A stretch of 58,967 nucleotides of DNA, from positions 1 through 58,967 of the forward strand of contig CAZNOS010000001.1 in NCBI GenBank assembly GCA_964574775.1, given 5' to 3'. The stretch is from Candidatus Woesearchaeota archaeon. GTDB lineage: Archaea; Nanobdellota; Nanobdellia; Pacearchaeales; GW2011-AR1. Numbering within the stretch: the stretch's first letter is position 1; every line of letters begins with the position of its first letter. This document shows positions 3,090-43,381 of this stretch, in pieces. The translations under genes and the position numbers were made by a program. The notes beneath the pieces are model-generated. The model saw only the letters and a list, made by a program, of their open reading frames with translations. It searched no databases and was not told the DNA's origin.

Positions 3090-4289
3090 TTATTTTTTCT
3101 TTTTATTAGATTGTGCTCTTTTTTTCTTAGCAGCAACGATCCACCAAGCAACTCCAAGCAATATTAAGAATATAACAACACCAAGAGACCATCTACCTGC
3201 AGTTGTACCAATAACCGCACCAGTTATTGCACTAATAAAATTTGTAGCAGTAGAATTTGTCGCATTTTCTTCGACAAGTGTTTGATTATCTTGATTATCA
3301 TTTAGAACTGGAACACTACAAGATCTTAAATCCATTGGTTCAGAGGCCTCTGGTTCACAATAATTTGCTGGATAAGAACAAGTTCTACTTTGAACTCCGC
3401 CATTACATTCGGACCAGTCAGTACATGTCCATACTGTAGTACAAGAAGAACTTCCGCCACCATTTCCACCAGTTACTGGAGCAGCGTTTACTATTACTGT
3501 TCTATTTAACGAAGCAGAATTCCCAGCATTATCTACAACACTATATTGAACATAATAAGTTCCAACAGCGGAAGTATTTACATTTGAAATATTAGTTATA
3601 TTAGAGGTTAAATTCCCACTTACACCATCATCTGCAGTTGCGCCCTTGTCTGTATAAACATCGCCGACTGTTAAAGTTTCATTTCCACCGATCAAAGTAA
3701 TAACTGGCTTAATCGTATCAACTGTAAAAGATAAAATTCTTGTAGTGCAAGTATCTCCATCTACACAAAATTTAAGAGTTAAATTATTTTCGCCCTCTAC
3801 TGCTTCATAATTTACATCATACCAATATTCATCGTCACCATATAAAGAAGTATCGTCGAAATAAAACACGCCAATGTATCCTGGTGCAGAAATATTGATA
3901 TCTACAAACAAAGAATTAACCAAGCTATTAGGACTAACAAAACTAATAGGTAAATTATAAAAGGTAAGATTTGCATATTCATATTCTCCCGAAGAGTCAT
4001 TAATAAACATCAAGGGAACCACGTTTTCACCATTTTGAACAATCCAATCGTCATAATACCAGTATGCATCGCCATCATTACTCAAAAGACTACTGCTACC
4101 ATCTTCCACAAAAGAAACATCATTATAGCCAATTACAGATAAATTAATCAAAGTAAAAGAATTATCTGTTATAATAGAATCATTTAGCGGAGAAATAAAA
4201 GAATAAGAATTAGAAGACGGTAAAGCACTAGCAAAAGATAAAACTAATAAAAATGCAAAAACGAAAGATAAAATATTTGTTTGTTTCAT
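3090..4289 (-). CDS. Glycoprotein-like surface protein with Ig-like (DUF5011/HYR-like) domain, Cys-knot stalk and C-terminal membrane anchor
   Basis: Signal peptide MKQTNILSFVFAFLLVLSFASA and at least a dozen N-x-S/T sequons. Segment KPVITLIGGNETLTVGDVYTDKGATADDGVSGNLT...YYVQYSVVDNAGNSAS resembles bacterial Ig-like DUF5011. Motif CTTVWTCTDWSECNGGVQSRTC, then C-terminal TM plus KKKRAQSNKKKK tail. Confidence 0.7.
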   Translation of the reverse strand: MKQTNILSFVFAFLLVLSFASALPSSNSYSFISPLNDSIITDNSFTLINLSVIGYNDVSFVEDGSSSLLSNDGDAYWYYDDWIVQNGENVVPLMFINDSSGEYEYANLTFYNLPISFVSPNSLVNSLFVDINISAPGYIGVFYFDDTSLYGDDEYWYDVNYEAVEGENNLTLKFCVDGDTCTTRILSFTVDTIKPVITLIGGNETLTVGDVYTDKGATADDGVSGNLTSNITNISNVNTSAVGTYYVQYSVVDNAGNSASLNRTVIVNAAPVTGGNGGGSSSCTTVWTCTDWSECNGGVQSRTCSYPANYCEPEASEPMDLRSCSVPVLNDNQDNQTLVEENATNSTATNFISAITGAVIGTTAGRWSLGVVIFLILLGVAWWIVAAKKKRAQSNKKKK

Positions 4290-4337
4290 TTGAATGTATA
4301 TGTTTTAGTATATATGTTTATTTATAAACCCTTTTGT

Positions 4338-4865
4338 TTATTTAGTGCCTAATTTAAAAAAGCCGTTTCTCTTGAAATCATCAGACGCATAAGCCACGGT
4401 AGCACTAATTTCCTTATTTAAATCGGACGTAGCATTGTAACATTTAGCCAATCTAGAAGTCCAGGTTTTTAAATCCGTAGAATCATGAACATAATAATTA
4501 ACACCTTGCGTCAAATTTGTAGCCGAAACAGTTACATAAACTCTATTGGGAAAAGCGGGCTTAACTTCTCTAGATATCCTAGTTATATGTGGTCTATTAG
4601 CAACAATAGCCATAGCCACAGGAGTATCATTTGAAGCAACACCTGCAACAGAATAATCATTTGAAGCAACACCTGCAACAGAATAATCATTTGAAGCAAC
4701 ATTTGAAACATCATTTGTAGAAGCTAAAGAAGATCCAGCAAGTACAGGAGTATCATTTGAAACAACATTCGCAACATCTTTCGTTCCGCCAAAAGCAGAA
4801 GCAGCACTAGCCAATATAGCTAATCCGCCAGCAATTGTTGAACGTATTTGATTCATCATGAACAT
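4338..4865 (-). CDS. Secreted repeat protein (SND-rich decapeptide repeats), unknown function
   Basis: Signal-like N-terminus (IAGGLAILASAASAFG). Repeats SNDYSVAGVA x2 plus degenerate copies. Arg-using, Lys-poor C-terminal domain ending GFFKLGTK. Confidence 0.6.
   Translation of the reverse strand: MFMMNQIRSTIAGGLAILASAASAFGGTKDVANVVSNDTPVLAGSSLASTNDVSNVASNDYSVAGVASNDYSVAGVASNDTPVAMAIVANRPHITRISREVKPAFPNRVYVTVSATNLTQGVNYYVHDSTDLKTWTSRLAKCYNATSDLNKEISATVAYASDDFKRNGFFKLGTK
4621..4776. repeat. 30-bp tandem repeat (3 adjacent units, 27/30 identity to the middle unit, plus a degenerate 4th copy) inside CDS 4338..4865
   Basis: Units are 4621-4650 ggagtatcatttgaagcaacacctgcaaca, 4651-4680 gaataatcatttgaagcaacacctgcaaca and 4681-4710 gaataatcatttgaagcaacatttgaaaca. 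A degenerate copy lies at 4747-4776. Confidence 0.9.
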
Positions 4866-5034: not shown

Positions 5035-5706
5035 TTAAGGAGCAGCAGGAGTTGAAGCAGGAGTAGGAGTTGGAGCAGGAGTTAGAGTTGATGGATGTGC
5101 AATTTTACAATCTTGCTCAGAAAGATAAACTTCGCTAGAAGCCCTACAAACAGCTACCTTCTCTGTCGAACCTGCATATTTAACGCAAGCAGTACCATCC
5201 GTATTAAAGCACCAGCTTTCTAATCCCAAAATATCTCTCACTAAAATAAGGTTTTTCTTAGTACAATCTTTACCATTAATCAAAATACTATAACTAGAAG
5301 AACCAGAATTCTCATTTATTGCTAATTGACATCTCTCTACCCAAGTGGTTTCTGGACACTTTATTGCCGCTTCATTATAATTCTCTATGCTTGCAACAGA
5401 AGTCTTTATTGTAGAATTAAGATACTCGCAATTAACCAACTGTTTACTAAGACCAAAAAAACTCTTTTTTTCTATAGTCTTAAAATCATTACAAAACTTT
5501 TTTTGCAAATCAACTGGACCGACAGACAAATCAGTACTACATCCACCAGCAGCAGCGACAACTACGGCATCATTTGCGCCCAGTGCAGCACCAGCAGTTC
5601 CAAGTACTCCTTTATAAAAACCGACAACAAGAAGTCCGATAATAATAACAACGACAAATACAATTATAAAATTCATCAAAGCATCGCCCTTTTTATTCAT
5701 CACCAT
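5035..5706 (-). CDS. Prepilin-like (class III signal-like) Cys-rich secreted protein, cluster member A
   Basis: N-terminus MVMNKKGDALMNFIIVFVVVIIIGLLVV. 11 Cys in the ectodomain. Pro/Thr-rich C-terminal tail TLTPAPTPTPASTPAAP. Confidence 0.7.
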   Translation of the reverse strand: MVMNKKGDALMNFIIVFVVVIIIGLLVVGFYKGVLGTAGAALGANDAVVVAAAGGCSTDLSVGPVDLQKKFCNDFKTIEKKSFFGLSKQLVNCEYLNSTIKTSVASIENYNEAAIKCPETTWVERCQLAINENSGSSSYSILINGKDCTKKNLILVRDILGLESWCFNTDGTACVKYAGSTEKVAVCRASSEVYLSEQDCKIAHPSTLTPAPTPTPASTPAAP

Positions 5707-5754
5707 TAGAATACTAAAAAGAAATCTATTTATAAATCTTTCTTTGATTCACTA

Positions 5755-6714
5755 CTAACTACTAATAATCATAGTTTCAGCACCAGATGGACAAAACGCC
5801 AAATTTGTCGAGGATTTTCCCTCTTCGAAATAATTAAACGCCAAACTAAATTCTAGCTTTTTCATTTCCTTATTAATATAATATCTATCCTTACTCGTTA
5901 ATTTCGCTAAAATACTAACTGGTTTCGCATATCCACTAAGGCTACTAACGACATTAACATTACTACCCGTATCACCAGAAACATATGTTGGTGGCGTAGG
6001 CTGGGCAGAAATCGAACTAAATCCTTGCAAAGCAACATCTTCAAAACTCACATCAAAATCAGAAAATTTATTTTCAAAACATATTTTCGCAGCGTCCGAA
6101 CTCGAAGATCTTAGACACTCGCAATAAATTCCGACGATATCATCTAAACTCAACAACCCCAACATTTGAAAACTTACATCAGCATTTATCATAGAAGAAT
6201 AATTAACTCGCAATAACACATTCCCATCAGAGTCAACTCTACTAATATTAGTACGCCAGTTTTCAGCTCTCACTCTCGCACTCTTCCCATCAAAACTATA
6301 AACCGCATTATTACCACGGAAAAAATCTCCTACCGCACCAACTCTTTGCATATCTTCGCCATCAAAACTAAACAATACACCATCACCAAAATTCTCCACT
6401 TTCGTACCCGTTACTTTCTCCCTAAATATCTCATTCAAATTCACATTATCGTGCCCAATTTTTTCAGAATAATCCTTCAAGACAACCTGATAGTTATTCA
6501 AAAAAGATTCTACCAAAATAAAATATAAACTATTTTCTAAACTACTCTCATTTGCATAAACCCTACCATACCAGAGAGCATCATCAAAATTTCCAGAAAC
6601 CTTCAATGATCCCATCGAAAGAATAGACAGTATTCCCGTAAATAAAAACAAAACTCCCAACACCATTATCGCGATACTTACAGAACCCTTTTTATTTTTA
6701 GAAAAACTAAGCAT
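5755..6714 (-). CDS. Prepilin-like protein, cluster member B
   Basis: N-terminus MLSFSKNKKGSVSIAIMVLGVLFLFTG. Overlaps the upstream gene by 8 nt. Confidence 0.7.
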   Translation of the reverse strand: MLSFSKNKKGSVSIAIMVLGVLFLFTGILSILSMGSLKVSGNFDDALWYGRVYANESSLENSLYFILVESFLNNYQVVLKDYSEKIGHDNVNLNEIFREKVTGTKVENFGDGVLFSFDGEDMQRVGAVGDFFRGNNAVYSFDGKSARVRAENWRTNISRVDSDGNVLLRVNYSSMINADVSFQMLGLLSLDDIVGIYCECLRSSSSDAAKICFENKFSDFDVSFEDVALQGFSSISAQPTPPTYVSGDTGSNVNVVSSLSGYAKPVSILAKLTSKDRYYINKEMKKLEFSLAFNYFEEGKSSTNLAFCPSGAETMIISS

Positions 6715-7207
6715 TTTTACACTCCCTCACCAAAACACCCACGTTAGAATATTCCTGTTTTTTTGTTGGCAAATAAAACGAACTCACGTCATCCCACACT
6801 CCACAACCCGCTACATCTTTTGAATCCGGTTGAGGTCTTACCACCACTCTTATCTGACCTATCACCAAACCGAAATAATCATAACTAATCATTTTAATAA
6901 ACTCGTCTACGGATTTTCCGAACGCAGCCTCTCCCTTATAACTACTATAAACATTCCCCAATAATTCGCCCTTCTCAGAACTAGAAAAATCACTCATCAA
7001 AAGCGCAGCACCAATTCTCTGATTCGCAAGAGAATTATGAAAACTATACTCTCCACTAGACAAAACAATCTCGATATCCGCTTTTTTTCCAAGTCCACCA
7101 AGATTGTAAGCCAATATTACAACAATCACCAAAACAAAAATTAATATTAATCCAGCCGCCCAACTAAAAACCTCTCCCGCTCCTTTTTTATTTATTTTTT
7201 TAAACAT
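6707..7207 (-). CDS. Prepilin-like protein, cluster member C
   Basis: N-terminus MFKKINKKGAGEVFSWAAGLILIFVLVIVVIL. ATG at 7207 shares one nt with the TGA of the upstream gene. Confidence 0.7.
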   Translation of the reverse strand: MFKKINKKGAGEVFSWAAGLILIFVLVIVVILAYNLGGLGKKADIEIVLSSGEYSFHNSLANQRIGAALLMSDFSSSEKGELLGNVYSSYKGEAAFGKSVDEFIKMISYDYFGLVIGQIRVVVRPQPDSKDVAGCGVWDDVSSFYLPTKKQEYSNVGVLVRECKNA

Positions 7208-7731
7208 CAAACAACACTCCTTTTACCAATATTATCTGACACAACTAAAACCACAACACTAACTCTTTCTATATTTCCCTCTTTATTTATAAAAAGATAA
7301 CTCTCATTTCTATATAGACAGCCATGTGTGTCGAAAGATTTTTTGTTTCTATTTACATCACAATCACTCTGATACAAAGAATTTCCAGCCGACAAAGAAT
7401 TTCTTACACGAAAACCAGTACCATTAAAAAAACTAATATTAAACCAAAAATAATCCCCTCTAGCGTCGTCACTAGCCGGATCTAAAATATCTTTATTTAA
7501 ATGACAATACGAATACACATTAAAATCATCTGCAAAAACATCGTTCACGATATATCCGTTCTCTGTTATACATTCCATAAAATTCGTATAAAGAATTTCA
7601 GTCTCTAAAGGCCGCACGTCCACCGGACTATTAATATATTGAGCAACTAAAACAATAACTCCCGCACCAATTAAAAGTAAATACAATATAAATATCACAG
7701 ACATTATCTTCTCACTTCCACGTTTGTTCAT
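7207..7731 (-). CDS. Prepilin-like protein, cluster member D
   Basis: N-terminus MNKRGSEKIMSVIFILYLLLIGAGVIVLV. ATGA overlap with the upstream gene. Confidence 0.7.
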   Translation of the reverse strand: MNKRGSEKIMSVIFILYLLLIGAGVIVLVAQYINSPVDVRPLETEILYTNFMECITENGYIVNDVFADDFNVYSYCHLNKDILDPASDDARGDYFWFNISFFNGTGFRVRNSLSAGNSLYQSDCDVNRNKKSFDTHGCLYRNESYLFINKEGNIERVSVVVLVVSDNIGKRSVV

Positions 7732-8171
7732 TCTTTCACCTCTATTTTTATTGTAACTCTTCCATTGTTGCCCAGATTCGGAGGAGAAAAAAGAATGTTA
7801 TAATTGGAAAAATAGCAATATGTATAACCGCCCGTCTTAGAACCCAAAGAAACAAAAATACAAGGCTCATCCTTAACTTTCGAAAAACTTTCACCCTTCG
7901 CCCTCACAACATCTCTCTTCTCTTTTAGCGCTATATTATATGCATCCGTAACATCTAACGTAATATCCGTACCTGGCCTCGCTCCGTCAATAATCAACGC
8001 AATTTTTTTTGCATAAATTTCCTCATTAATAGATGCCCCACCTATAGAATTTTTAGCAAAGACTAAAAGAATAAAGGCAAAAACTAAAAATAAAATCAAA
8101 TAAGTAATCTCCGGCCAAGCAATAGCATTTGCAGAACCCCTCTTGTTTTCTTTAAAATCCAAAATCACCAT
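7728..8171 (-). CDS. Prepilin-like protein, cluster member E
   Basis: Start set at the internal ATG (MVILDFKENKRGSANAIAWPEITYLILFLVFAFILLVF). The ORF-track start at 8213 is probably an over-extension. Confidence 0.65.
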   Translation of the reverse strand: MVILDFKENKRGSANAIAWPEITYLILFLVFAFILLVFAKNSIGGASINEEIYAKKIALIIDGARPGTDITLDVTDAYNIALKEKRDVVRAKGESFSKVKDEPCIFVSLGSKTGGYTYCYFSNYNILFSPPNLGNNGRVTIKIEVKE

Positions 8172-8217
8172 ACGAAACAAACCACTTTTAACATTATAAA
8201 TCTTGCCAAACAATCAA

Positions 8218-9270
8218 CTAAACGTTCTGGAATTCCTGTATGCCGTATTTTTCAAATCCATCTTTACTATAATCAGTTAATACCAATCCCCCAACCGCCA
8301 CAGAATCCTTTAGCGGACCCGAAACAAAAAATCCTTGCAACCAATCTCCAAAATCTCCAACAACACTAAGAACCGAATAACCAAGTCCAACACCAGCTAT
8401 ATTTCCTGCGCTACCTCCTCCAGCAAGAACCAATACTCCCTTTCCAAGAATAGAGGACGCCCCAGGAACAAAAATACAAACAGCCGCTATAGCAGCACCT
8501 GCTGTTGTGCCAGCAATAACCTTTCCTAGATTTGTATTTGTAGTTTCAATATAAGTTATAGCTTTAACTCCAGTCAGATTCAAGAAATCACTATTTTTCA
8601 AATCGGCACTTGTCTCAATCGGAACAAGAGATCCATACAACTGAGCAGCCGAATCTCCCTCGGGAGTATTTCTAAGATAATCCATATAACTATAATTTTG
8701 AGTCGGAACCTTATGCGTCGTCATATACTGAACTAATCCTGTAATATTTTTTATATCATCAGATGGATCATCCTTATCTTTACCAAAAAGAATACTATCA
8801 TCAAATTCTATCTTATCACATATAATTCCTTTAGAAACATCCGCATCTGTAATTTTCCATGCCCTAGAAAAAATCTGCAACTTACCCTCTCCAAACATAT
8901 TCCAACAATCAGCCATTTCTCTAGCTAAAAACATTCTTATCTGTTCTTTCTGTTCAATAACAGTCGTGGCCGACAACCTTTGTGTTTCATATGTTTTCCC
9001 GATACCTGTACAATTCCCCTTACCGGAAGCCTTAGTCGTAAGACAAATCACTCTAGACTTACACCGAACAGAAACAAGATCTTTCGCAGGAACATCTCCA
9101 CCAGGAAGTATTGCCTTAAGCAAAATTGATTCTTTACATGCCGCTCTATCTATAGTTTGTTGAAATGGGAAAAAAACAAAGATAAGCACGAAAACAGCTA
9201 ACGTAATAACTGCCAAAATTATACTGACAACAAACCAGTTTACATCTCCTCTTTTATTAAAAATAAACAT
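8218..9270 (-). CDS. Prepilin-like protein, cluster member F, with Gly-rich hydrophobic C-terminal region
   Basis: ATG at 9270 gives MFIFNKRGDVNWFVVSIILAVITLAVFVLIF. C-terminal segment AGTTAGAAIAAVCIFVPGASSILGKGVLVLAGGGSAGNIAGVGLG. Confidence 0.7.
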   Translation of the reverse strand: MFIFNKRGDVNWFVVSIILAVITLAVFVLIFVFFPFQQTIDRAACKESILLKAILPGGDVPAKDLVSVRCKSRVICLTTKASGKGNCTGIGKTYETQRLSATTVIEQKEQIRMFLAREMADCWNMFGEGKLQIFSRAWKITDADVSKGIICDKIEFDDSILFGKDKDDPSDDIKNITGLVQYMTTHKVPTQNYSYMDYLRNTPEGDSAAQLYGSLVPIETSADLKNSDFLNLTGVKAITYIETTNTNLGKVIAGTTAGAAIAAVCIFVPGASSILGKGVLVLAGGGSAGNIAGVGLGYSVLSVVGDFGDWLQGFFVSGPLKDSVAVGGLVLTDYSKDGFEKYGIQEFQNV

Positions 9271-9303
9271 AATCAAAATACAAAAACCTTCTTTTTATAT
9301 TTA

Positions 9304-9417
9304 ACTAAGAAAGATTCGTCAGAAACTTAATTACGTAAACAACTGCCAATATTAAAATTCCAATTAGAATCGCTATTGAAATATCCTCAACCGTATTACT
9401 GCCCGTATCATCTGCCA
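9304..9417 (-). CDS. Small (37 aa) single-TM protein inside the prepilin-like operon (absent from the ORF track)
   Basis: Hand translation gives MADDTGSNTVEDISIAILIGILILAVVYVIKFLTNLS*. It fills the gap between members H and F on the same strand. Confidence 0.45.
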
Positions 9418-9463
9418 TAAAAAAATAACTTAAACCACATTAATAAATGTTATTAGAAATCAC

Positions 9464-10732
9464 TCAACATGTATGTTCAAAATTTTTAGAAAAAATGAGA
9501 TTACCAGACAAATCTACAACATCAATTTTTATTATTCTCTTCTGACCATCACTACCATGTGAACAAATGAACTCACTTACGCCCAAAAAGTTTAAAGCTG
9601 GACTGGTTCTAAAAATAGCACGATTTAACGTAGTCAATTGTTTATTATTAGAATCATAAATAGACGTCTTCGCATTAAATTCCACATCACCACAAGATTC
9701 CTCAAAAGAAACGACATAAGATAATGGAGCAGTCTCTGTAATATCCGATATTTTACAATCAGAAATTTCATTAATCTCTAAACCACTCGAATCAAAAACA
9801 TTCGATACCCCATTCTGAAAAGAAGCATACTCCCAAATAAAACCATATTTTATTTTATATTTTCCAGAAACAATCTTATCCTTCGGATAAACACATGAAA
9901 GATTTAAAACTCCACCTGAAACATAGTTCATACTAATCTTTTTTTCATACTTTATACCTAAATTAGAAAATCTACAAGAAACACCCTGCACTACGAAATC
10001 ATCATCACGCAATAAGTCAAAAATTACCACCTTTAAAAGAGAAAAATCACAATTACTAAACCGACTCGTTATATTAACACGGATATCATCCCCTATTATC
10101 TCAGAAGCAGCACGAACATCCTCCAAACTACATCCCGCATTTTGAGAATAAGTTTTATACGCTAAATCATTAAGATACATAAAATAATTATCATTCGTCT
10201 TTCTTACAAAAACACTTCTTGGAACCGGACTCACATGAATAAAACACATATCCGCTAAAATAACAGTTTCAAATATTTTCGGATTATAACGTGCAGGAAA
10301 CCATTCTTTATACCAAACTCTATCTCCCTCATCTAATGCCTCCCAAATCTCCTCAGATAAACTAAGACACGGCGTCCCATCGTGATCATAATCAATTGGC
10401 CTGTCCAAATCTACACAAGCCTGATTATCCGCACAACTCATCTCCTTAAAATTGGCTGGAGAACATAAGCAAAATTTCTTTTCATCAAACATGAACACCC
10501 AATCTTTTGGACTTTCAATAACAAACTCCTTAATTTCGTCAGTCTTCATTTCGGAAAATCCGTCGGATAAAACACGCAACGTTCCCTTAGCCTGCTCAAC
10601 TTGTAAATTCGTAGTAACCATTTTTATAAGAGCAACAAACAGCAATCCAATTACAATCAAAACACCTATTGCTAAAACAGTTTTCACTATTTCCTCAGTC
10701 GTAATATCTCCTCTCTTGTTCCCAAAACTCAT
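9464..10732 (-). CDS. Prepilin-like Cys-rich protein, cluster member H (first gene of the 8-gene unit)
   Basis: N-terminus MSFGNKRGDITTEEIVKTVLAIGVLIVIGLLFVALI. Multiple Cys (FCLCSPANFKEMSCADNQACVDLD...). Confidence 0.7.
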   Translation of the reverse strand: MSFGNKRGDITTEEIVKTVLAIGVLIVIGLLFVALIKMVTTNLQVEQAKGTLRVLSDGFSEMKTDEIKEFVIESPKDWVFMFDEKKFCLCSPANFKEMSCADNQACVDLDRPIDYDHDGTPCLSLSEEIWEALDEGDRVWYKEWFPARYNPKIFETVILADMCFIHVSPVPRSVFVRKTNDNYFMYLNDLAYKTYSQNAGCSLEDVRAASEIIGDDIRVNITSRFSNCDFSLLKVVIFDLLRDDDFVVQGVSCRFSNLGIKYEKKISMNYVSGGVLNLSCVYPKDKIVSGKYKIKYGFIWEYASFQNGVSNVFDSSGLEINEISDCKISDITETAPLSYVVSFEESCGDVEFNAKTSIYDSNNKQLTTLNRAIFRTSPALNFLGVSEFICSHGSDGQKRIIKIDVVDLSGNLIFSKNFEHTC

Positions 10733-10814
10733 ATTAATTAAAAAAAATCATTCTTAATAAACATTACCAATCAATCGCCATAATATTTAAATAAAAAAGA
10801 CGGCATAAAAAATA

Positions 10815-12083
10815 ATGTCATTGGAAAAAATCTTGAAGACTGGAAGAAATCTGCTTATGGCCACCTTTTTGTCTGCCTCACTGACGAGCTTATCCCCAGC
10901 ACAAAATCCACCAGAAGAAGCCATGATACCCATTCCCGTAGATCAGTCTCTTTCGTGGTTCCGTCCAATTAACGGAGTTTTAACTTGCAAAAATAAAAGC
11001 AACACAACTTCACCATCAGCACAATTTGCCTCTCAATATACCGTTACAAATACATTTTATCTAACTGGAAAAACGACAGAAGATGGTTGTTTAAACGTAG
11101 GTTTTTTTAGCGCAGACCCAAGAAAAAAACCAGAAAAAACACACTACAGAATAGATTATGCGAATTCCAAACTCTACATAATGTGTTCACCAAACCTATC
11201 AATTGATTCTAATACACAATATGCAGAAGAACTCACGCTAACCGATAAACTTGCATCCACCAAACTAGTTCCAAAAGAAGAAGCCAAGGGATTTTGGATT
11301 CGGGCAGAACAAAGGGTTTTAGAAACATTAGAAAATTACGATCCAAGCAGAAAATTTTTAGAAGTATACACATTAGGAACAGCAACCGATTATTGCTTTT
11401 CCGAATTAATAAAAAATCACGCCATTGCCATGAACACCACCGTAGGAGAAAGAATGAAAAATGAAATAGACGATAGAAATGCAATAGGCACGATTCAAAT
11501 TCCTTTTCATTCTAAAGAAAAAAATGTTTTATTTCGCAACGAATTTGGAAGAAAGTTTAGAATATTCTTAGGTGCTCAAAATCCAACCACACCAGTCCGA
11601 GTTTTATATCATATAGAAACAGAATTTGACGACGGAACATCTAGTGCAAGAGGAACGCTCGAAGCTTTCACGGAAGAATTTCCAGCATTCACAATACCGA
11701 AAGAAAATCCTCCATCAGAACAAAAACCGTCAACACAAAAATGGCCAACAGGAATTTGGATAAAAGAACCACGAACGGACAAAACAGTAACTCCGGAAAA
11801 ACTCGAATCGCAAGAACTATATCAAGCCGGTTATTGTATAGATAACGACGGGAATCTATATCAAATATATTCATCTAGAAGATTTCCCGCATTCACAGAA
11901 ACAAGACAAGATGGAACCATCGCCGTATATCATAAAGACGTATCTAACGGAGTAAAAATCACAGAAAGAAATAATAGTTCGCTAGAAATACTTAGGCCAC
12001 TAAACGTAGACACAATGGAACAAACAACTACTGACACATCTACAGGAACAACAATAAGAAGAAACATATTCAAAAGAAAATAA
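10815..12083 (+). CDS. Secreted hypothetical protein on the opposite strand, splitting the prepilin-like cluster
   Basis: Signal-like N-terminus LLMATFLSASLTSLSPAQNPPEE. Its composition differs from the neighbouring genes (more Pro/Arg/Thr). Confidence 0.65.
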   Translation: MSLEKILKTGRNLLMATFLSASLTSLSPAQNPPEEAMIPIPVDQSLSWFRPINGVLTCKNKSNTTSPSAQFASQYTVTNTFYLTGKTTEDGCLNVGFFSADPRKKPEKTHYRIDYANSKLYIMCSPNLSIDSNTQYAEELTLTDKLASTKLVPKEEAKGFWIRAEQRVLETLENYDPSRKFLEVYTLGTATDYCFSELIKNHAIAMNTTVGERMKNEIDDRNAIGTIQIPFHSKEKNVLFRNEFGRKFRIFLGAQNPTTPVRVLYHIETEFDDGTSSARGTLEAFTEEFPAFTIPKENPPSEQKPSTQKWPTGIWIKEPRTDKTVTPEKLESQELYQAGYCIDNDGNLYQIYSSRRFPAFTETRQDGTIAVYHKDVSNGVKITERNNSSLEILRPLNVDTMEQTTTDTSTGTTIRRNIFKRK

Positions 12084-12088
12084 TTAAA

Positions 12089-12853
12089 TTATTTCGTAGA
12101 AATTTTTAATGCACTTGCTAATTTTGCATAATTATCCACCAATAGGTTGGTTTGTATATTTGCCTGTAAATCATCATTTATATACAAAACTGGATTTTGA
12201 AATCTCTTTAATAAAATTAAATCTGGCGTATTATAGCTCCTAGAATTATCTGGGCCCTGACCACCAACCCAAGTAGTATCGCAAGGTAAAGAAACTTGTT
12301 GGTTTGCATCTAGCGTCGTTTTGGATAAGAAATATTTTCCAACATCATCTGGAGAATAAGCAAAATAAACAACGCCATTTAAAGAAATGGCTCCAACAAT
12401 TACATCCTTAGGGAACCAAAAAGAAGTCTCTTTTAGGTATAGCACAATATGATTTTTATATTTCTTTAAATATATCGCATTCTCATAACCATTTCCCCAA
12501 AAACTTGCATCCACCTTACACAGCCTTAAGCTCAATATAGCATTCTCAAAAATATACACTGACTCCGTATTTGCACCCTTAGTGGTATTAACTATTATAT
12601 AATTAAATACGGGTGGAGCGATTTGCCCACTATCACCAACCACATCCGCCAACTCATCACTTCCCTCTATAACTCCATAGGATTGATTTGCCTCCCCTTT
12701 CATATCGGGCAAAATATTTTGTAACATCGTTTTAAATTGAGTCGGAAAAATAATAAAATAAACAGCCATAGCAATAATCGCCACGCTAATTACTAGGGCC
12801 ACGACAGTGCCCGCCGTCATATCTCCTTTTTTATTTTGAACAATCTTTCTCAT
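12089..12853 (-). CDS. Prepilin-like protein, cluster member I
   Basis: Start set at the internal ATG 12853 (MRKIVQNKKGDMTAGTVVALVISVAIIAMAVYFIIF). The TAAAATG junction links it to the small upstream ORF 12855..13013. Confidence 0.7.
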   Translation of the reverse strand: MRKIVQNKKGDMTAGTVVALVISVAIIAMAVYFIIFPTQFKTMLQNILPDMKGEANQSYGVIEGSDELADVVGDSGQIAPPVFNYIIVNTTKGANTESVYIFENAILSLRLCKVDASFWGNGYENAIYLKKYKNHIVLYLKETSFWFPKDVIVGAISLNGVVYFAYSPDDVGKYFLSKTTLDANQQVSLPCDTTWVGGQGPDNSRSYNTPDLILLKRFQNPVLYINDDLQANIQTNLLVDNYAKLASALKISTK

Positions 12854-12854
12854 T

Positions 12855-13013
12855 TTACGAACCAAACCTAAACCAGTCAAAGAAACTATGCAACCACCCC
12901 GTTGCCTGTTCTTTAAAAAAAAGTAACATAACCACGCCAACCCCAACTAAAGCTATAATGGCCAAAATAAGTCCTTGTACAAAATCAAATTCCGAACCTC
13001 TCTTATTCACCAT
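12855..13013 (-). CDS. Small (52 aa) prepilin-like protein, cluster member J (absent from the ORF track)
   Basis: Hand translation gives MVNKRGSEFDFVQGLILAIIALVGVGVVMLLFFKEQATGWLHSFFDWFRFGS*. Same N-K-R-G-S plus helix motif as the other members. Its stop lies 1 nt before the ATG of member I. Confidence 0.55.
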   Translation of the reverse strand: MVNKRGSEFDFVQGLILAIIALVGVGVVMLLFFKEQATGWLHSFFDWFRFGS

Positions 13014-13083: not shown

Positions 13084-13605
13084 ATGGATAAAATTAAGGC
13101 AACATTCATATCCGAAAAAATATTCTCTAACTCGAAAGAGGCGTTCGGTATGTTTGAATCTCAAAGGTTTGGTGAAAGAACTGGCGAAAAAATTTTCTAC
13201 ACCCTCCAAGAAACACTTTTCTTAGTGGAAACAGGAAAAATGGAAATAATAGACTCTAAAGATAAAAAAATACCCGAAAGAGAAATCTTAAAAAAATTCG
13301 CCAAAATAGATAAAAAATTCAAAACAAAATACCTAGTCTTCAGAGATTTAAGAAAGAAAGGATTAATTGTAAAAACCGCACTCAAATTTGGAGCAGAATT
13401 CAGAGTTTATGAAAAAGGAAAATCTATCGGAGAAGATCACGCAAAATGGATTCTATTCCCAGTCTCACAAAACGAACAACTTACATGGCAAGATTTTTCT
13501 GCAAAAAACAGAATTGCGCACTCCACAAACAAAAAATTATTAATTGCAGTTGTAGATGAAGAAAATCAAGTCTCATATTACGAAGTAAATTGGTTGAAAA
13601 TATAA
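13084..13605 (+). CDS. endA: tRNA-splicing endonuclease
   Basis: YLVFRDLRKKGLIVKTALKFGAEFRVYEKG...HAKWILFPV...IAHSTNKKLLIAVVD is typical of the archaeal EndA catalytic domain. Confidence 0.85.
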   Translation: MDKIKATFISEKIFSNSKEAFGMFESQRFGERTGEKIFYTLQETLFLVETGKMEIIDSKDKKIPEREILKKFAKIDKKFKTKYLVFRDLRKKGLIVKTALKFGAEFRVYEKGKSIGEDHAKWILFPVSQNEQLTWQDFSAKNRIAHSTNKKLLIAVVDEENQVSYYEVNWLKI

Positions 13606-17497: not shown

Positions 17498-17752
17498 ATG
17501 GTCATAAATGAAACTGGAATTACAATAACCGATGTTGCTAGAGCAATTTACCCATTGGTTTCCGGCGACATAACTCCCCTAGTGAATATATTTAAGGCTG
17601 CGGGAATAATTATTATCATCTATATTCTCTTTTTAATTATCCAATCCATACTAAAGATAAAAGACAGAAGACGACTAAAAAGAATAGAAGAAAAATTAGA
17701 TACTCTATTAAAAGTACAAAACAAAGATAAAAAAAAGAAAACTAAATATTAA
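17498..17752 (+). CDS. Small single-TM protein with basic C-terminal tail
   Basis: TM segment AAGIIIIIYILFLIIQSIL followed by KIKDRRRLKRIEEKL...KDKKKKTKY. Confidence 0.5.
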   Translation: MVINETGITITDVARAIYPLVSGDITPLVNIFKAAGIIIIIYILFLIIQSILKIKDRRRLKRIEEKLDTLLKVQNKDKKKKTKY

Positions 17753-18545
17753 TTTGACTCTCGTATAATCTACGTCTTAATGCTTCCCTATTTTCTCCTT
17801 CCCTAGAAAACTTTTTCCCGAAAAAATTTGAAAAAAACCCTTTTTTCTCTTTCTCTCCGACTAAAGCTCTAGCTAATTTTTTTACCTCTTTAGAAACATC
17901 ATTCAAACTATCATAAATAGTAATTGGTACCTTAAAATGACTAGCCTCTAAAATCTTCTTATGATCTTTAATCCTCGCAACGACTGGCAATTCTATCATT
18001 TCTTCAATTTCGTTCAAATCAACTTCATATCGCGAATCTTTTATCTTGTTAATTATGACTCCCTCGACATTTGTCTTACTCTGCTTAGCCATCGCCGCCG
18101 CTTTAATTGAAGTATGAAGAGTAACTCTATCTGGAGTAGTTACAACAAAAATTTTATCTGCTGCCGCTATTGCTGGCAACATTTCAGAATGATGGGGTGA
18201 AGAATCAATAATAATAAAATCATATCTCGATTTATATTTTTCTAAAACTTTTTTTAATTTATATGGATCTACATCATCCTTAAAATATAACGAAGAAGGA
18301 ACAATATCCATTCCATACGCCTCGTAAATTGCTGCGTGTAATCCTTCCCTATCCCCCAAAACATCGTGCAATGTTAAATCATTCTTCATGCCCAGATAGA
18401 GCGCTATATTCGGTGCAGAAAAATTTGCATCAACCAGTAAAACTTTTTTTCCAAAGTCGTTTGCTAAAGCAGAAGCAGTTTCTAAGGCCAATGTCGTTTT
18501 TCCGACTCCACCCTTTATAGATACAAAACTAATAATTATTCCCAT
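17742..18545 (-). CDS. minD: MinD/ParA-family P-loop ATPase
   Basis: Deviant Walker A SIKGGVGKTTLALETASALA. Also VLLVDANF and IIIDSSP. Confidence 0.85.
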   Translation of the reverse strand: MGIIISFVSIKGGVGKTTLALETASALANDFGKKVLLVDANFSAPNIALYLGMKNDLTLHDVLGDREGLHAAIYEAYGMDIVPSSLYFKDDVDPYKLKKVLEKYKSRYDFIIIDSSPHHSEMLPAIAAADKIFVVTTPDRVTLHTSIKAAAMAKQSKTNVEGVIINKIKDSRYEVDLNEIEEMIELPVVARIKDHKKILEASHFKVPITIYDSLNDVSKEVKKLARALVGEKEKKGFFSNFFGKKFSREGENREALRRRLYESQINI

Positions 18546-31363: not shown

Positions 31364-34300
31364 TTATTTATCTGAGACAAAAGTATATCCTTTTTCAGAT
31401 AACTTGGTAGAAGCAGAACCTACTGGAATAGTTTGAGTTGCAGTTTGTCCACTTTGTTTAATAGTTATTACGACGCCACCGCTAGCTGTAGTAGAACTAA
31501 CCACGGAATATTTAACACCATCCTTCTCTAAAATATTTCCAGAAACCAAATCTCCCAGGGTTTTATCAGTAGTAGTCGTTGCAGTTGTCACCGGTGTTTC
31601 AGTACTGGTCGACGGCATATTCACCGCCGAAAGCAAAGTTCCTTTACCATTCTTTAATCTTACAATCGTTTCATATAATTTATATCTCAAATAAACTCCC
31701 TTAGCCTGATAAACATTTGAAAACCCTCTATCCTGCAATGTTGTAATATTACTCAATATAGGAAGATGTGCACCAGCTTTAACACCATCATTTGTTAATG
31801 CATGAATATCATTATTAATTTTAACCGCTAATTCCTGACTTGCGTCCTCTGTCAATGTGCCACTAGCACCATTTAAAATTTCCAAAGAATTTTCAGCCTG
31901 ATTCATATCCTCCGAAATATTCCATATTTGAGACGTTGCAGCCGACACAGACTCTGTGTCCAACCAGCAAACCATATTTGCATCTCCACAAGTCCCAACA
32001 CTTTTCCATCTGGAAGATTTCGATGTGCCATCTCCTGGATTTACAGTCGAACAAATTCTAACAATTCCTTGTAAATCAATTCTCGGATCAACAACGTTTT
32101 CTACCGCAGCCTGTGGATTAATAGAAGTAAATCCAATAACAGAAGAACTTCCCTGTTGACATTCTTTCTCGGTAGTAATTTGAGTTTGACTCACCTGAGA
32201 TTGAACATATGAATTAGTCAAAGCATTAACTGCAAAATCAGTTGTAACCTTTCCAAAGCCACACTCTTCCTGTCCATTTATCGACACACAAAGCTCCTTA
32301 TATCCTTCTGGCGCAGTAAAATCTTTCGAAACCTGCTTCTGTTGTCCTTTAGTAACGTAACCCGTTTCTACATTAATATACGGAATTCCAGTATAATAAC
32401 TCGAATCTGGTGGATTCTTTAAGTAAATAGAATAACTAACTCCTGTATCATTTCCAGCGTAAATATGTGCGAATACTTTATATTGTGACGTTGGAGGAAC
32501 TGTTGCATCTGTATGTGGTATTTCCTGAAACTCTGCATAAAATTGATATGGGGACTCAGGCGCAAGCAAGGAATCTAATGCCTCTGCCGACGTAGGGAAT
32601 GAAGTTCCAACAAACGAATTACAAACTTCCGTTCCAAATTGTTGCGTATTGCCAAACTTAAATTGAGTAAATGAATTTGCGCCATAAGTATTTTTGAAAT
32701 AATCTAAACTTGCCTCCATATTATTCCAAGATTTTTGGAAAGTCATATATTCTCCACCACCAGCCTTTTGTGTTCCGGTCACGAGCGAAAATATATTTGG
32801 CAAGAAATTACTAATCGCCGGCTGAATTTGATTCCAAAATAAATTACATTTGTAAACCGCTGTCATATAATCACACATACCAATATACTCACCATTATCT
32901 GCATTTGCCTGTAAACAGTCTCTCTGGGCTTTTAATATCGACAAATACGCATCTAATCCCGCATGTACCCCTGTTAAACAAACTGGGATATAAACATCTC
33001 CGCCAAATAATTTGAAATTCGGTAAACACAAAACTAAACTTCCAATAACTCCCGATTGAATAACATTTGAAACGGGATATTTACCGCCCAAATCACATCT
33101 CGAAGTTGGGCACATAACTGGATCACAAACATTAAACATTAACGCGCAATCTTCTGGCGACATGAAATCCTGACACTCTTCAATCGGACCACCCTCTCCC
33201 GTCGGAGTTCCTCTTTCTGCTTCAATATCTGCTCTGCCAGAAATCTTAATTATAATTTTCCCCTTCGAAGAATATTGTCTTCCCGCCTGTCTCAAAGCCT
33301 CTTGCGCATCTAAAATTAATCTCGTTCTTTCGTTAGATGACATTTTACAGCCCGCAACACTCACCAGATTTGTCGTTTCACCTACTGAATTCACATTAAT
33401 AGTTGTACATGCATCATCTGGAGTTTGCCTACCATCCTGTCCAACATTGCATACAGAGAATGTATTAACACTTCCAGAATCAGAATATCCTTTCGATTCA
33501 GACGACAGCAATCCACCCTGCGATGCAGAAACTTTCACATACCAACCCAAATCAGCATCGAAAGGAGTTGCTGCAGCAAGTCCCTTTGCACTTCCACTAT
33601 CGTAATAATTAACAGTTGGATTCAAATTTTTATTTTTACAATTTCCAGACGAAACAAAACGCGCGTTGGATAAAGTTTTTTTAATATCGCCATCAGCTAA
33701 TTCTATCCAGGAATTCGTATTTCTTTCATAAACAGAACTAACGCTTCTTTGTCCAGAATTTTCTTCACTTAAAATCAAAAGATAATTTATTGTATTATAT
33801 CTAGTTAAATAAACAGCAGTTCCAGTCGCAACATTAGCAACAGAACCAACGCCAGAATCACCGACCTTATCTCCGCCCCAAACCAACTCTTTTGTTTCCT
33901 TGTTCTCCCATAGATTAACATTGGCACCGCCAGAAGTTGTACCAGACTGAGATTGAGCATTTGCCGCATTCACTATTGGTATCAGAGCCGCATCTCTATC
34001 AACCTTAATTTTATTTATTAATTTAGACGAAGCGCCACTAGATTTAATATTTTCATACAATAAATAAGCCCTTACTGACTCCCAACTATTCAACGAAGAA
34101 ATCGGCAACGTCGCAGTTGTCGTCGACATATTTATATCAGTTATAGTTCCACCACCCAAACTCGCAACAAATTTCGTAATATTTTTTTCCGTTCCAATCT
34201 TGTCATTCACCGCCTTTACTGCATTTGTATAGGCATCTACATCTTTGCTGATATTTGCACCCATTCTGTTATAGCAAACATCCCTAGTCTCCTTAACGCC

Positions 34301-36646: not shown

Positions 36647-38472
36647 TGTTCTAACCCCACGGATAAAACCGAATCTTCAAACTTAATATAGTTTTCATTT
36701 ATATCTTCAATTTTTTGCGGCAAAGAAAAGATAGGAACATTAATTGCTATCGTTCCACCTTGACTTAGAGAATAATCGTCGAAAAATTCAACCGACTTTC
36801 CACCACCATTTAAAACTTGATCTATAGTCTGAGAAGGCATTTCAGTTGTAAAACATTTTGTTTCTACTTCGCCAGTAAGTGCACCAAACCCAGTCGCTGG
36901 AACTTCAAAACATCTGCTTTCAGTTCTTGCTGGGAAAGTTAAACTAGAATTTCTAAAAACCTGTACACTGACATTATAGACGCCCTCTACCAACTCTATC
37001 TTTCTCTCTGCAGGATACATAACACTTCTTGAAAAATCATCAGAAGTAAACTGAACGATTGCATTTCCAGAAACACTTCCTAAATTAAGACCCAGAGTAT
37101 AAACTTTTTTAACCAAAACATCCGCAGAGCTTTCTTGGCTTGAAGAAACGACATATCTACCAGAAGAATAATTTTCCGCTCTCGCCTCTATATATCCATT
37201 GATACAAACCGGAATTTTAGTTTGCAATGGACCAGATTTTGTTTCGCCCAAATAACATCTTTCTCCAAGACAACTATAACTCAGAGTTGCAGCAACTGGA
37301 TTTCCATTCAAATCAGAAACACCGATTTTCATATCATGATTTCTATTCTTACAAATTACCTCTTCCTCGCCAACGAATTCACCAATATTAGTAGAATTCC
37401 TAACTTGGTTTCTTTCAATCATAACAATAACTGGAAATTGAAAAAACTCCTCATCGTCATGAACCTGTATCAAAACTGGAAACATAAGATCATAAATAAG
37501 TTGATATTCAACGAAACAAAAACCAAGCGCATTCATTCCGGGCTGCAAACCAACTGGTTCGACAACATCGTCGCCATATATCTCAATTTTTGTAGGCCAA
37601 TCAGAAAAGTAAACAAAATCCACGCTCTCATCTGTCTTCATATCATCAACTACAAAATAATCATCCGAATTCAAATAGTAATCTCCGCTAATTTTTACAA
37701 ATTGAATATTTTCCACTAAAGCATCAGAAATGTTTTGTCTAATATTAGCAAAATTGAAAACCTTTGGAACACAACCCTCTTCAAATCCAACCGTCGGTGC
37801 ATTCAAGGTTAAAGTATCAAGCGCATAATTATCTAAAAATTTAACTCTTGATTGTGTGTCATATATTCCCTGGGCCAAATCATAAAATTTACCAATCTTA
37901 GAAGCAACAGAAATTTTGTGTTCGCTCACAACAGCGCTAGTATTGTCTTCAGAAAAGAAATAAACATTATTGTCTAAAACCACCTCTACGGAATTATCCT
38001 TAATCTCGACCTCTACATTACCAGAATCTACGTCGATAAAAATGCCGTCATCATTAAAATTTTTAAAATTACAATCTCTCATTGACTCAGAAATAAATCT
38101 TTCTAATTCAGAAACCATCTGTGATTTTGTCGGGATCTGTTCCTTTACTACATTATTTCCAGAAACATAAAACCAATAAGGAACACCAGCACCGCCGAAA
38201 TCTAACTGAGAAGAAGATGGCGCATAAATACTACCGGATTCAAATGGTAGCTCTTCCGTGTATATATAACCACCCTGCTCTCCCAATAATTTGATTCCAG
38301 ATTTTACTCTTTCAGTGATACAGGATTTATATGCATCTTCTGCGGATTGAAAATTTTTAGAAACTGTTCCAGTAAAACCACCCCTAAAAACATAATATAA
38401 AACTATTCCAGCAACCAAAATTATACCTAACACAATAAAGATAGTTACCTGTCCTTTTTTACTAATCACCAT
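36643..38472 (-). CDS. Prepilin-like (class III signal-like) 609-aa protein, translationally coupled to the giant protein
   Basis: N-terminus MVISKKGQVTIFIVLGIILVAGIVLYYVF. Its stop overlaps the start of 31364..36646 (36643-36646). Confidence 0.75.
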   Translation of the reverse strand: MVISKKGQVTIFIVLGIILVAGIVLYYVFRGGFTGTVSKNFQSAEDAYKSCITERVKSGIKLLGEQGGYIYTEELPFESGSIYAPSSSQLDFGGAGVPYWFYVSGNNVVKEQIPTKSQMVSELERFISESMRDCNFKNFNDDGIFIDVDSGNVEVEIKDNSVEVVLDNNVYFFSEDNTSAVVSEHKISVASKIGKFYDLAQGIYDTQSRVKFLDNYALDTLTLNAPTVGFEEGCVPKVFNFANIRQNISDALVENIQFVKISGDYYLNSDDYFVVDDMKTDESVDFVYFSDWPTKIEIYGDDVVEPVGLQPGMNALGFCFVEYQLIYDLMFPVLIQVHDDEEFFQFPVIVMIERNQVRNSTNIGEFVGEEEVICKNRNHDMKIGVSDLNGNPVAATLSYSCLGERCYLGETKSGPLQTKIPVCINGYIEARAENYSSGRYVVSSSQESSADVLVKKVYTLGLNLGSVSGNAIVQFTSDDFSRSVMYPAERKIELVEGVYNVSVQVFRNSSLTFPARTESRCFEVPATGFGALTGEVETKCFTTEMPSQTIDQVLNGGGKSVEFFDDYSLSQGGTIAINVPIFSLPQKIEDINENYIKFEDSVLSVGLEQ

Positions 38473-42182: not shown

Positions 42183-42264
42183 AAAGAATACAAACAAAAA
42201 GGATTTATAATCCTAACGAAAAAGAAATATTTAAATACACAATCAAACTATTCATATAAAGAAC

Positions 42265-42546: not shown

Positions 42547-42573
42547 AAAAATAATTTTTATTTTTATATTAAA

Positions 42574-43347: not shown

Positions 43348-43381
43348 GTAAAATTAAGTTATTAGATATTTATAAAGATTA

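Follow-up and report, generated by a model that had tools for sequence, protein, structure and literature searches.

In a contig of a Candidatus Woesearchaeota archaeon (CAZNOS010000001.1, assembly GCA_964574775.1), which we analyzed over its whole length of 58,967 nucleotides (the window), an island of ten minus-strand genes between positions 5035 and 13013 probably encodes the pilin (substrate) module of a type IV filament system conserved among DPANN archaea of the Woese-, Pace- and Nanoarchaeota type. Nine of the ten encoded proteins have N-K-[KR]-G ahead of a hydrophobic helix at their N-terminus. In related genomes, orthologous operons are flanked by genes for an ATPase, a platform-like membrane protein and a prepilin peptidase, and it is this comparative genomics that supports the pilin reading, without domain or fold matches. 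DPANN archaea are thought to live attached to hosts, and their attachment apparatus is poorly defined. A preliminary description of the window had proposed a multi-subunit pilus module of a host-dependent archaeon, a proposal supported by the machinery-flanked orthologous operons in dozens of genomes. The further suggestion of an undescribed system is not supported, since the island represents the pilin portion of a type IV filament locus found very commonly in Woese- and Pacearchaeota, the machinery of which is already annotated. The kind of system is known, while its pilin families are unannotated.

A common head on unrelated mature proteins

Searching all window open reading frames (ORFs) of at least 50 aa for [NSQ]K[KR]G returned ten occurrences, and all ten were N-terminal and preceded a hydrophobic stretch. 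A [KR][KR]G head was present in nine of the 26 ORFs that start with a hydrophobic segment, namely in eight island genes and in 36643-38472. The other 17, among them Sec-type signal peptides and polytopic transporters, lacked it. The head is thus set apart from the other signal- or anchor-bearing proteins of the window, as had been claimed, and the proposed check for a motif general to membrane proteins, run on the window ORFs, spoke against such generality (0/17). Residue shuffling of 60 window proteins predicted 2.7 +/- 1.6 proteins with [KR][KR]G within the first 45 residues compared to nine observed, the maximum over 2000 shuffles being nine. The location of eight of the nine head carriers in one run of adjacent genes is a stronger signal than this excess. 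In pairwise comparisons, similarity between the island proteins was confined to the first ~35-45 residues and therefore points to a common N-terminal signal on unrelated mature domains.

A short basic leader that ends in [KR]-[GA] and precedes a hydrophobic helix of ~20 residues, the hallmark of prepilins, was found in nine of the ten island genes and in 36643-38472. That the heads are class III (prepilin) signal peptides gains support from the relatives' operons, which are flanked by a T2SSE ATPase, a platform-like protein and an A24 peptidase (see below). In 48 machinery-linked loci, position -3 of the heads was K or R in 88% and position +1 was Q in only ~19% of the cases. The offset between head and hydrophobic window ranged from 1 to 12 across loci.

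Could K-[KR]-G be a mere positive-inside feature of generic signal anchors in a set of paralogous membrane proteins? The Lys-rich proteome, in which the motif is expected by chance in ~2.7 of 60 proteins, and the lack of a pilin family or fold match would be in line with this. However, the motif was missing from all 17 other hydrophobic-start ORFs and the mature domains are not paralogous. Moreover, in 49 species the orthologous operon is enclosed by genes for ATPase, platform and A24 peptidase. This synteny already contradicts generic anchors, which we regard as highly improbable.

The pilin-like operon is conserved in DPANN archaea

Scanning one genome per species revealed island orthologues in 79 species-level loci from metagenome-assembled genomes (MAGs) labelled as Woese-, Pace- or Nanoarchaeota or as Diapherotrites. 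Nearly all of these loci display a collinear series of head-bearing genes around the match with one head signature per position: KKRG-IISEYLPW (~50 aa), KKG-FLLAEETLK, KKG-ELTTQQIV (the match to the 350-aa protein 8218-9270), KRG-xILxENxIF, KKG-xDKxxSVYWF, KKG-QxGExxTW, KRG-DIPVTILV and KRG-QGLSTNAIILI. The heads of the window map onto these signatures of distant loci. In fact, the head type KRGxxxxEExxK of 9464-10732 is that of the second pilin gene in distant loci ('KKGFLLAEETLK'), while 6707-7207 and 5755-6714 correspond to KKGQxGExxTW and KRGDIPVTILVxGV, respectively. The positional counterpart of 5035-5706, which gave a weak match in L021 (E 7e-5), is the last pilin gene ('KRGQGLSTNAIILIILG') preceding the A24 peptidase gene.

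Three adjacent genes form the most conserved part of the operon. Full-length homologues of 8218-9270, 7728-8171 and 7207-7731 were present in 85, 83 and 80 of the compared loci, and the orthologues of 7207-7731 always adjoin those of the other two. The 350-aa product of 8218-9270 had 32 database relatives with 31-73% identity, none of which is annotated. An alignment of 29 orthologues displayed an invariant head glycine preceded by a nearly invariant lysine as well as six invariant cysteines. At residues ~250-320 the protein is hydrophobic and rich in Gly, and its C-terminus is conserved (VGGLxLTDYSxxGF...FEN). The invariant cysteines would fit an extracytoplasmic location. A search with the family profile retrieved ~1975 clusters at 50% identity, of which 1047 had E <= 1e-10. 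The 147-aa family of 7728-8171 is characterized by the motifs EExYAKKIALxID and GGYSYxFF.

The nearest relatives of the window among species-representative genomes are MAGs labelled Candidatus Woesearchaeota. On contigs of close relatives the entire island is syntenic and located next to the gene for the endonuclease. A 55-aa and a 220-300-aa gene come first, at times followed by an opposite-strand gene, and after them a ~450-aa gene, the 37-aa ORF and a series of 340/140/167/140/250/190-aa genes. A full archaeal-type locus with ATPase, platform, pilin and A24 peptidase genes was also encountered in L082 (JAHYJW010000004.1), a bin labelled 'Patescibacteria group bacterium' that is probably mislabelled or mis-binned.

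Assembly genes flank the pilin-like operon in related genomes

An archaeal type IV filament (TFF) requires an ATPase, a platform, a class III peptidase and a filament subunit (10.64898/2026.04.22.720090). The orthologous locus carries all four core parts, the platform being assigned by position and topology. Upstream of the pilin-like genes, 59 loci contain on the same strand a gene for a ~760-aa ATPase with a Pfam T2SSE domain (E 1e-13 to 1e-16). This domain begins near residue 410 of 762, which leaves a long N-terminal extension. The ATPase gene is followed in 63 loci by a gene for a highly conserved membrane protein of ~727 aa with eight predicted transmembrane (TM) segments and two cytoplasmic domains. 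Directly 3' of the last pilin-like gene, 54 loci encode a polytopic protein of ~280 aa with an AGGDAK motif, which matched Pfam Peptidase_A24 (PF01478) with E ~1e-12 and 48 bits at a cutoff of 26.5. It has 5-8 predicted TM segments, and its best NCBIfam model was FlaK_Arch with a weak match. All three machinery genes occur together in 49 loci. In 48 of these 49 the peptidase gene lies downstream on the same strand, and the interval from platform to peptidase mostly holds 5-8 head-bearing genes (range 1-8). A pilin set like that of the window is flanked by all three genes in a Pacearchaeota locus (L015). In a locus from Nanoarchaeia (L018), a window-like set including the 37-aa ORF directly follows the ATPase and platform genes, and the contig stops before the peptidase position.

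Compared with solved structures, the ATPase was most similar to A. fulgidus GspE2 (E 3e-25), followed by the Tad ATPase CpaF (4e-22) and FlaI (3e-13). On NCBIfam, the TadA-family and FlaI models scored best and about equally, both well below their cutoffs. More than 4600 database proteins matched the L015 ATPase at E <= 1e-20, and the best 120 of these matches are 76-100% identical to the query and annotated as 'type II/IV secretion system ATPase' or 'FlaI'. The ORF of the ATPase is enlarged to ~1260-1290 aa instead of ~760 aa in L019 (2804-6592) and L066 (3011-6874), which suggests an intein or another insertion. On a Pacearchaeota-type contig (L086, 12545-18809), a uvrA-uvrC-uvrB block is situated between the pilus ATPase gene and a gene for a platform-like protein of 717 aa. 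The platform function of the ~727-aa protein is deduced from its position, its eight-TM topology and one faint T2SSF match.

The KEGG labels flaI/flaJ/flaK given to Woesearchaeota would imply archaellum genes serving motility. Such labels appear in the literature (PMC5994134, PMC11606122), and the FlaI model indeed scored about as high as TadA. In contrast, the comparison with solved structures puts the ATPase nearer to GspE2 and CpaF than to FlaI, and the ~44-aa subunit described below is unlike archaellins. Furthermore, neither archaellin nor FlaH, FlaF or FlaG families were found among the island proteins, the proteins of the L059 operon and the Pfam annotation of the neighbourhoods. The reading as archaellum genes was therefore rejected as highly improbable.

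The first gene encodes a likely major subunit

The 52-aa protein encoded by 12855-13013 has no globular head; its hydrophobic helix is followed by a short tail that terminates in DWFRFGS. In 70 loci, the pilin-like series opens with a gene for a member of a family of similarly small proteins, which in L059, for example, immediately follows the platform gene. Mature lengths peak at 44 aa and the N-terminal consensus is [IV][IV][ST][ED]YLPWLLIA. The hydrophobic helix is followed by K-x-K-G and a short tail ending in RFG, and 56 of 79 sequences combine an acidic residue at +4 with an aromatic one at +5. Position and C-terminal RFG motif place the protein of the window (NKRG-SEFDF...DWFRFGS) in this family. 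It shares with Flp- and EpdE-type pilins a mature part of ~40-60 aa, the missing head domain and the first place among the pilin genes. Of the curated Flp and class III pilin models, Flp1_like matched below threshold (E 0.0047, 16.8 bits at a cutoff of 33.5 bits), and the homologues from L059 and L015 matched no family model. Both Tad/Flp pili and the Epd pilus have major subunits without a head (10.64898/2026.04.22.720090). Because it is headless and the counterpart of the first pilin gene after the platform, the 52-aa product is the best candidate for the filament body and likely the major subunit.

The presence of such a subunit also bears on whether a long pilus is formed. A short pseudopilus or surface-display machine, bindosome- or type II secretion-like, might present or export large heads for substrate capture instead. 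This would agree with at least eight different large 'pilins' per operon, with LamG, Glug, NosD/beta-helix and VWA proteins in or beside the operons of relatives and with the proposal of a 2026 census that TFFs are functionalized with binding proteins carrying class III signals (10.64898/2026.04.22.720090). However, the headless ~44-aa subunit is highly conserved in 70 loci, and such subunits build the filament body in Tad and Epd pili (10.64898/2026.04.22.720090). Moreover, Pfam and NCBIfam scans detected no substrate-binding-protein domain in any island protein. We consider a display machine of this kind unlikely and favor a filament-forming pilin module.

Large proteins of 568-732 aa are encoded in or beside the operon in L004 (8249-9955), L007 (7928-9940), L009 (7789-9972) and L002 (1577-3775). 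Of the two scanned ORFs, that of L004 was annotated with Glug and that of L002 with NosD/beta-helix. These proteins bear the canonical archaeal pilin head KKG-VSAVVATVLIIMITVAA, reading KG-VSAVVATVLI in L004, L007 and L009, and two head types therefore exist within one locus. A VWA-domain protein of 489-621 aa follows the last pilin gene in close relatives (L002 13955-15820; L004 13905-15374) and is reminiscent of tip adhesins of the PilY1/TadG type. In the window, this position (3090-4865) is taken by genes for a protein of 175 aa containing VASNDYSVAG repeats and for an Ig-like surface protein of 399 aa that is anchored at its C-terminus.

Structure predictions and evidence against a pilin function

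We modelled two proteins of the conserved core with AlphaFold2. The 147-aa protein (7728-8171; alignment of five sequences) was predicted with a mean confidence (pLDDT) of 79.6 to form helices at residues 19-43 and 48-63 and, further on, about six strands along with two short helices. The model has the general layout of a pilin, a long N-terminal helix and then a beta-rich domain. A word-seeded search returned just five relatives of this protein, though 83 compared loci have one. For the 350-aa protein (8218-9270; pLDDT 65), a helix at 9-33 and an alpha/beta domain were predicted. Its residues ~250-320 are highly variable, modelled with low confidence and unusual for a pilin; they could be a second membrane-interacting segment.

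Several results weigh against the island encoding pilins. Neither the island proteins nor the operon proteins of L059, a machinery-linked locus, matched a Pfam or NCBIfam family above cutoff. Foldseek searches of both models against the PDB retrieved no pilin (best E 0.14 and 0.54), and a profile of the 147-aa family had no match among PDB sequences. Not all heads are canonical: the FlaFind-style rule of Szabo et al. from 2007 reportedly reads [ALIFQMVED][ILMVTAS][ILMVTAS] at +1 to +3. By eye, about four of ten heads (5035, 9464, 12089 and 36643) fit this rule, the remainder deviating by S at +1 or by 3-10 polar residues that separate the head from the helix. The platform candidate is affected as well. 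One member of the ~727-aa family matched T2SSF faintly (E 0.098), the family profile had no match among PDB sequences, and hhalign of the two protein halves revealed no significant internal duplication of the PilC type (probability 0.3). Neither ATPase nor platform nor peptidase genes were present within flanks of up to 10 kb around the island of the window and in ten species-level loci of its clade (L007-L014, L016, L017). Finally, cleavage, filament formation and function are themselves inferred.

The remaining fold evidence is compatible with pilins and not diagnostic. The non-significant Foldseek matches of the 147-aa model were beta-sandwiches only. As to the structural test suggested in the preliminary description, an N-terminal helix with a beta-rich head was predicted for this protein, but Foldseek matched neither model to a solved pilin.

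Genetic organization of the island

Start codons of the island genes were refined against independent gene calls (Table 1). All ten ORFs previously described were recovered in the same layout, and the reported spacing held with refined gaps of +45, +34, +46 and +48 nt and overlaps of 4, 1 and 8 nt. From the 52-aa gene onwards, the spacing is +1, a 1356-nt interval with an opposite-strand gene, +45, +34, +46, -4, -1, -8 and +48 nt. The coordinates first given for the 37-aa ORF (9304..9417) were one nucleotide off. The true start of 12089-12853 is the ATG at 12853 (MRKIVQNKKGD) rather than that of a long upstream ORF. It is consistent with a gene call of 254 aa in L001 and located 1 nt past the stop codon of the 52-aa gene.

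Table 1. Genes of the pilin island and other features of the window discussed in the text.
Position	Strand	Length	Product and N-terminus	Remarks
12855-13013	-	52 aa	Prepilin-like, MVNKRG-SEFDF...	Mature part ~46 aa
12089-12853	-	254 aa	Pilin-like, MRKIVQNKKG-DMTAGTVVALVISV...	Positional orthologues in L002, L004, L006
10815-12083	+	422 aa	Protein with signal-peptide-like N-terminus	Splits pilin operon into two units
9464-10732	-	422 aa	Pilin-like, Cys-rich (14 Cys), MSFGNKRG-DITTEEIVKTVLAIG...	phmmer matches in 22 loci
9305-9418	-	37 aa	Single-helix membrane protein, degenerate head DDTG-SNTVEDISIAIL	Sole island gene without K-[KR]-G
8218-9270	-	350 aa	Core minor-pilin-like, NKRG-DVNWFVVSIIL...	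Orthologues in 79 species loci
7728-8171	-	147 aa	Core minor-pilin-like, NKRG-SANAIAWPEITYLILF...	Full-length homologues in 83 compared loci
7207-7731	-	174 aa	Core minor-pilin-like, MNKRG-SEKIMSVIFILYLL...	Full-length homologues in 80 compared loci
6707-7207	-	166 aa	Pilin-like, NKKG-AGEVFSWAAGLILIF...	Orthologues in clade of the window
5755-6714	-	319 aa	Pilin-like, NKKG-SVSIAIMVLGVLF...	
5035-5706	-	223 aa	Pilin-like, Cys-rich, Pro/Thr-rich tail, MNKKG-DALMNFIIVFVVV...	Last gene of operon
13084-13605			tRNA-intron endonuclease	
36643-38472	-	609 aa	Stand-alone protein with KKG-Q class III-like head, MVISKKG-QVTIFIVLGIIL	
31364-36646	-	1760 aa	Protein with Sec-type signal peptide	Start overlapped by 4 nt by end of 36643-38472
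52405-53510	-	200 aa + 157 aa (ORFs)	PilT-family (bacterial-type pilus retraction) ATPase, frameshifted	

The opposite-strand gene 10815-12083 has a counterpart in the same position and orientation in L004 (5421-6623) and a homologue in L009 (E 6e-17). Homologues are missing from the machinery-linked loci and the product had no Pfam match. Its membership in the pilus system is uncertain. The 37-aa ORF is kept at the equivalent position in L004, L089 and L002, and the corresponding ORF of L018 starts with MINNKG-EFDEIVKVV.

The G+C content of the window is ~34% and its gene content is archaeal, including genes for TFIIB, the ribosomal proteins S8e, S3Ae and S15, GINS, SRP54/FtsY and a tRNA-Tyr of 93 nt. 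The JGI metagenome 3300045131 contains genes identical to those of the window, as do SRR12261223 and SRR12261225. A MinD/ParA-type ATPase gene is located a few kb from the island and syntenic in the clade (window 17742-18545, minus strand; L004 453-1253; L006 4041-4847). MinD-like ATPases have been proposed as partners of archaeal pili of System 2 (10.64898/2026.04.22.720090), and the vicinity of this gene to the island could be a coincidence.

The additional copy of the head that had been noticed in 36643-38472 was confirmed. The 609-aa protein, which has no family or domain match, has a homologue in just one compared locus and is probably an additional substrate of the pilin module's peptidase. 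Neither its sequence nor that of the 1760-aa product of the overlapping gene matched Pfam, and together the two may constitute a large pilin-like adhesin pair. The protein with a KLERG sequence (41361-42197) was rejected as a prepilin. It belongs to a separate paralogous family and has four predicted hydrophobic segments and a coiled-coil-like tail. The gene is clustered with four others for unannotated proteins (42574-43347, 43382-44314, 44414-44977 on the plus strand and 45160-46002). All five products of this cluster (41361-46002) start with a signal or anchor, contain several TM segments and end in a charged tail that resembles a coiled coil.

No assembly genes adjoin the operon in the clade of the window

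As previously described, there is no assembly gene in or beside the island, and no peptidase or platform was found among the unannotated membrane proteins of the window. All loci of the window's clade (L001-L014, L016, L017) share this organization, none of the three machinery genes being located within flanks of up to 10 kb. We therefore considered a relic or repurposed module, in which the lineage lost ATPase, platform and peptidase and the former pilins persist as uncleaved, N-anchored surface proteins (adhesins or envelope proteins) without forming a filament. The lack of machinery genes within these flanks in the window and the ten species-level loci, compared to all three in 49 other loci, points in this direction, as do the interruption of the operon by an opposite-strand gene and mature parts that are larger and more Cys-rich than in machinery-linked loci. 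Such a loss does not readily account for the K-[KR]-G head, which all orthologues of the clade, with 40-73% overall identity, have kept including the invariant glycine and which is hard to explain without continued recognition by a peptidase. Retention of the head at this divergence argues for continued processing. The headless 52-aa pilin has been kept too, and archaeal pilin genes are often located apart from their machinery (PMC4858521). A relic is thus quite unlikely, and the island is better explained as a functional pilin module.

The picture of a window free of machinery has to be amended in one respect: a frameshifted gene for a PilT-family ATPase is located at 52405-53510. The frameshift is due to an apparent 14-nt tandem duplication (agagagaattatat x2, near 52915-52945). 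Deletion of one copy restores a PilT protein of 363 aa that matched P. aeruginosa PilT with E 1e-75. An intact 362-aa PilT with 79% identity is encoded on the metagenome contig Ga0172375_10009836 (L090 6001-7089), which is syntenic with positions 50.4-56.8 kb of the window (SRP54 97%, DHH 93% and S15 90% identical). According to a review from 2018, no archaeal PilT homologue had been identified (PMC6098224). The detached, expanded pilin module and the resident bacterial-type PilT might together make up a retractile pilus for host contact or uptake, the first archaeal type IV pilus with a true PilT, whose DPANN-specific pilin families were missed by standard class III predictors and domain libraries. 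We regard this combination as unlikely.

Comparison with known filament systems

System 2 comprises the euryarchaeal PilB/PilC-PilA adhesion pili and corresponds to clade 2 of Makarova et al. 2016 (PMC4858521; 10.64898/2026.04.22.720090). The DPANN locus resembles it in the N-terminally extended ATPase, one platform-like gene and several pilins per locus, in adhesin-like proteins with LamG (L059) or Glug in or beside the operon, in A. fulgidus GspE2 as best solved relative of the ATPase and in the MinD/ParA gene near the island in the window and its clade. In contrast to System 2, the DPANN pilins have no match to Pilin_N/PilA or to any further Pfam family, the first of them lacks a head, the platform is not recognized by the T2SSF model and the peptidase is encoded inside the locus.

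Many minor pilins with class III signals in one operon, a small headless major pilin and a dedicated peptidase are reminiscent of the Epd pilus of Methanococcus maripaludis, a System 1 pilus. KKG-Q heads as in Epd occur in 36643-38472, in small pilins of the window's clade and in the last pilin of Pace-type loci. Overall, however, Q occupies +1 in the minority of DPANN heads mentioned above. Epd has two platform genes (10.64898/2026.04.22.720090) and the DPANN locus a single one encoding 727 aa. The Epd peptidase EppA represents arCOG02300, a form with nine TM segments (PMC4858521, 10.64898/2026.04.22.720090), whereas the DPANN enzyme of ~280 aa with 5-8 predicted segments is FlaK/PibD-like.

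Tad/Flp pili share with the DPANN locus a CpaF/TadA-like ATPase and a small headless pilin, here of ~44 aa, as major or candidate major subunit. The Flp motif 'G/xxxxEY' comprises adjacent acidic and aromatic residues near the mature N-terminus. The pair E/D4-Y5 of the small pilins resembles this motif, but it is shifted by one residue and not conserved in the clade of the window, and the Flp1_like match was sub-threshold. Larger pseudopilin-like proteins after the small pilin are comparable to TadE/F/G, and VWA proteins accompany the operon in L002 and L004. Secretin or outer-membrane parts are lacking, in contrast to Tad/Flp, and there are many more minor pilins.

The succession of ATPase, platform, small major pilin and a string of minor pilins together with A24 processing is also known from the Gram-positive ComG operon. 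The gene order in 49 loci, ending with the peptidase, mirrors comGA-GG plus comC and might indicate a competence-type pilus for DNA uptake that serves a nucleotide-auxotrophic symbiont. The generally reduced biosynthetic capacity of DPANN archaea (e.g. PMC5994134) would be consistent with such a need. However, the ATPase is far more similar to TadA, FlaI and GspE2 than to ComGA (E 1e-36 versus 2e-11), and no ComEA/ComEC-like gene was seen in the annotated neighbourhoods, where no systematic search was made. DNA uptake as the purpose of the pilus thus appears rather improbable. Unlike in the archaellum, neither archaellin nor FlaH/FlaF/FlaG was detected in the scanned operon proteins and annotated neighbourhoods.

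Discussion

Taking the island as the pilin module of a type IV filament, we propose the following model. The prepilins would carry a basic leader of 4-10 residues that ends in K-[KR]-G and precedes the hydrophobic N-terminal helix. An A24 aspartyl prepilin peptidase would cleave after the glycine. As deduced from established knowledge on type IV filaments, a TadA/FlaI-like hexameric ATPase would act through the polytopic platform to extract the processed subunits and to polymerize them by their N-terminal helices. The headless 52-aa product (12855-13013) would build the filament body like Flp of Tad pili and the headless major Epd pilin. Eight larger proteins without relationship to one another, some of them Cys-rich, would be minor pilins that likely form a priming or tip complex and adhesins, with the universally conserved trio 8218-9270, 7728-8171 and 7207-7731 as core. 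An ancestral single operon would have been divided in the window by the opposite-strand gene 10815-12083 and detached from the ATPase, platform and peptidase genes, which would act in trans from elsewhere in the genome. The most likely role of the filament is adhesion or host-cell contact, with capture of DNA or substrates as a conceivable alternative.

The machinery has been encountered before under various names. Studies on DPANN MAGs labelled it flaI/J/K or 'type IV pilus (FlaIJK)' (PMC5994134, PMC11606122, PMC8561730), and in papers on Woesearchaeota it appears as flagellar genes (PMC5994134, PMC11606122). A census from 2016 left one ATPase clade, which also occurs in 'nanoarchaea', without identified cognate pilins (PMC4858521), and a groundwater preprint from 2020 deemed type IV pilus components missing from DPANN genomes (10.1101/2020.05.14.094862). 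In the literature searched, we found no description of the DPANN pilin set reported here. New is the finding that the ATPase-platform-peptidase locus of Woese- and Pacearchaeota carries a fixed set of about eight pilin-like genes. The 350-aa family by itself comprises ~2000 clusters at 50% identity, all of them without annotation. The head signatures at each position make the pilin-like genes annotatable, and the headless candidate major subunit and the conserved three-protein core provide targets for structure prediction, metaproteomics and cryo-electron tomography.

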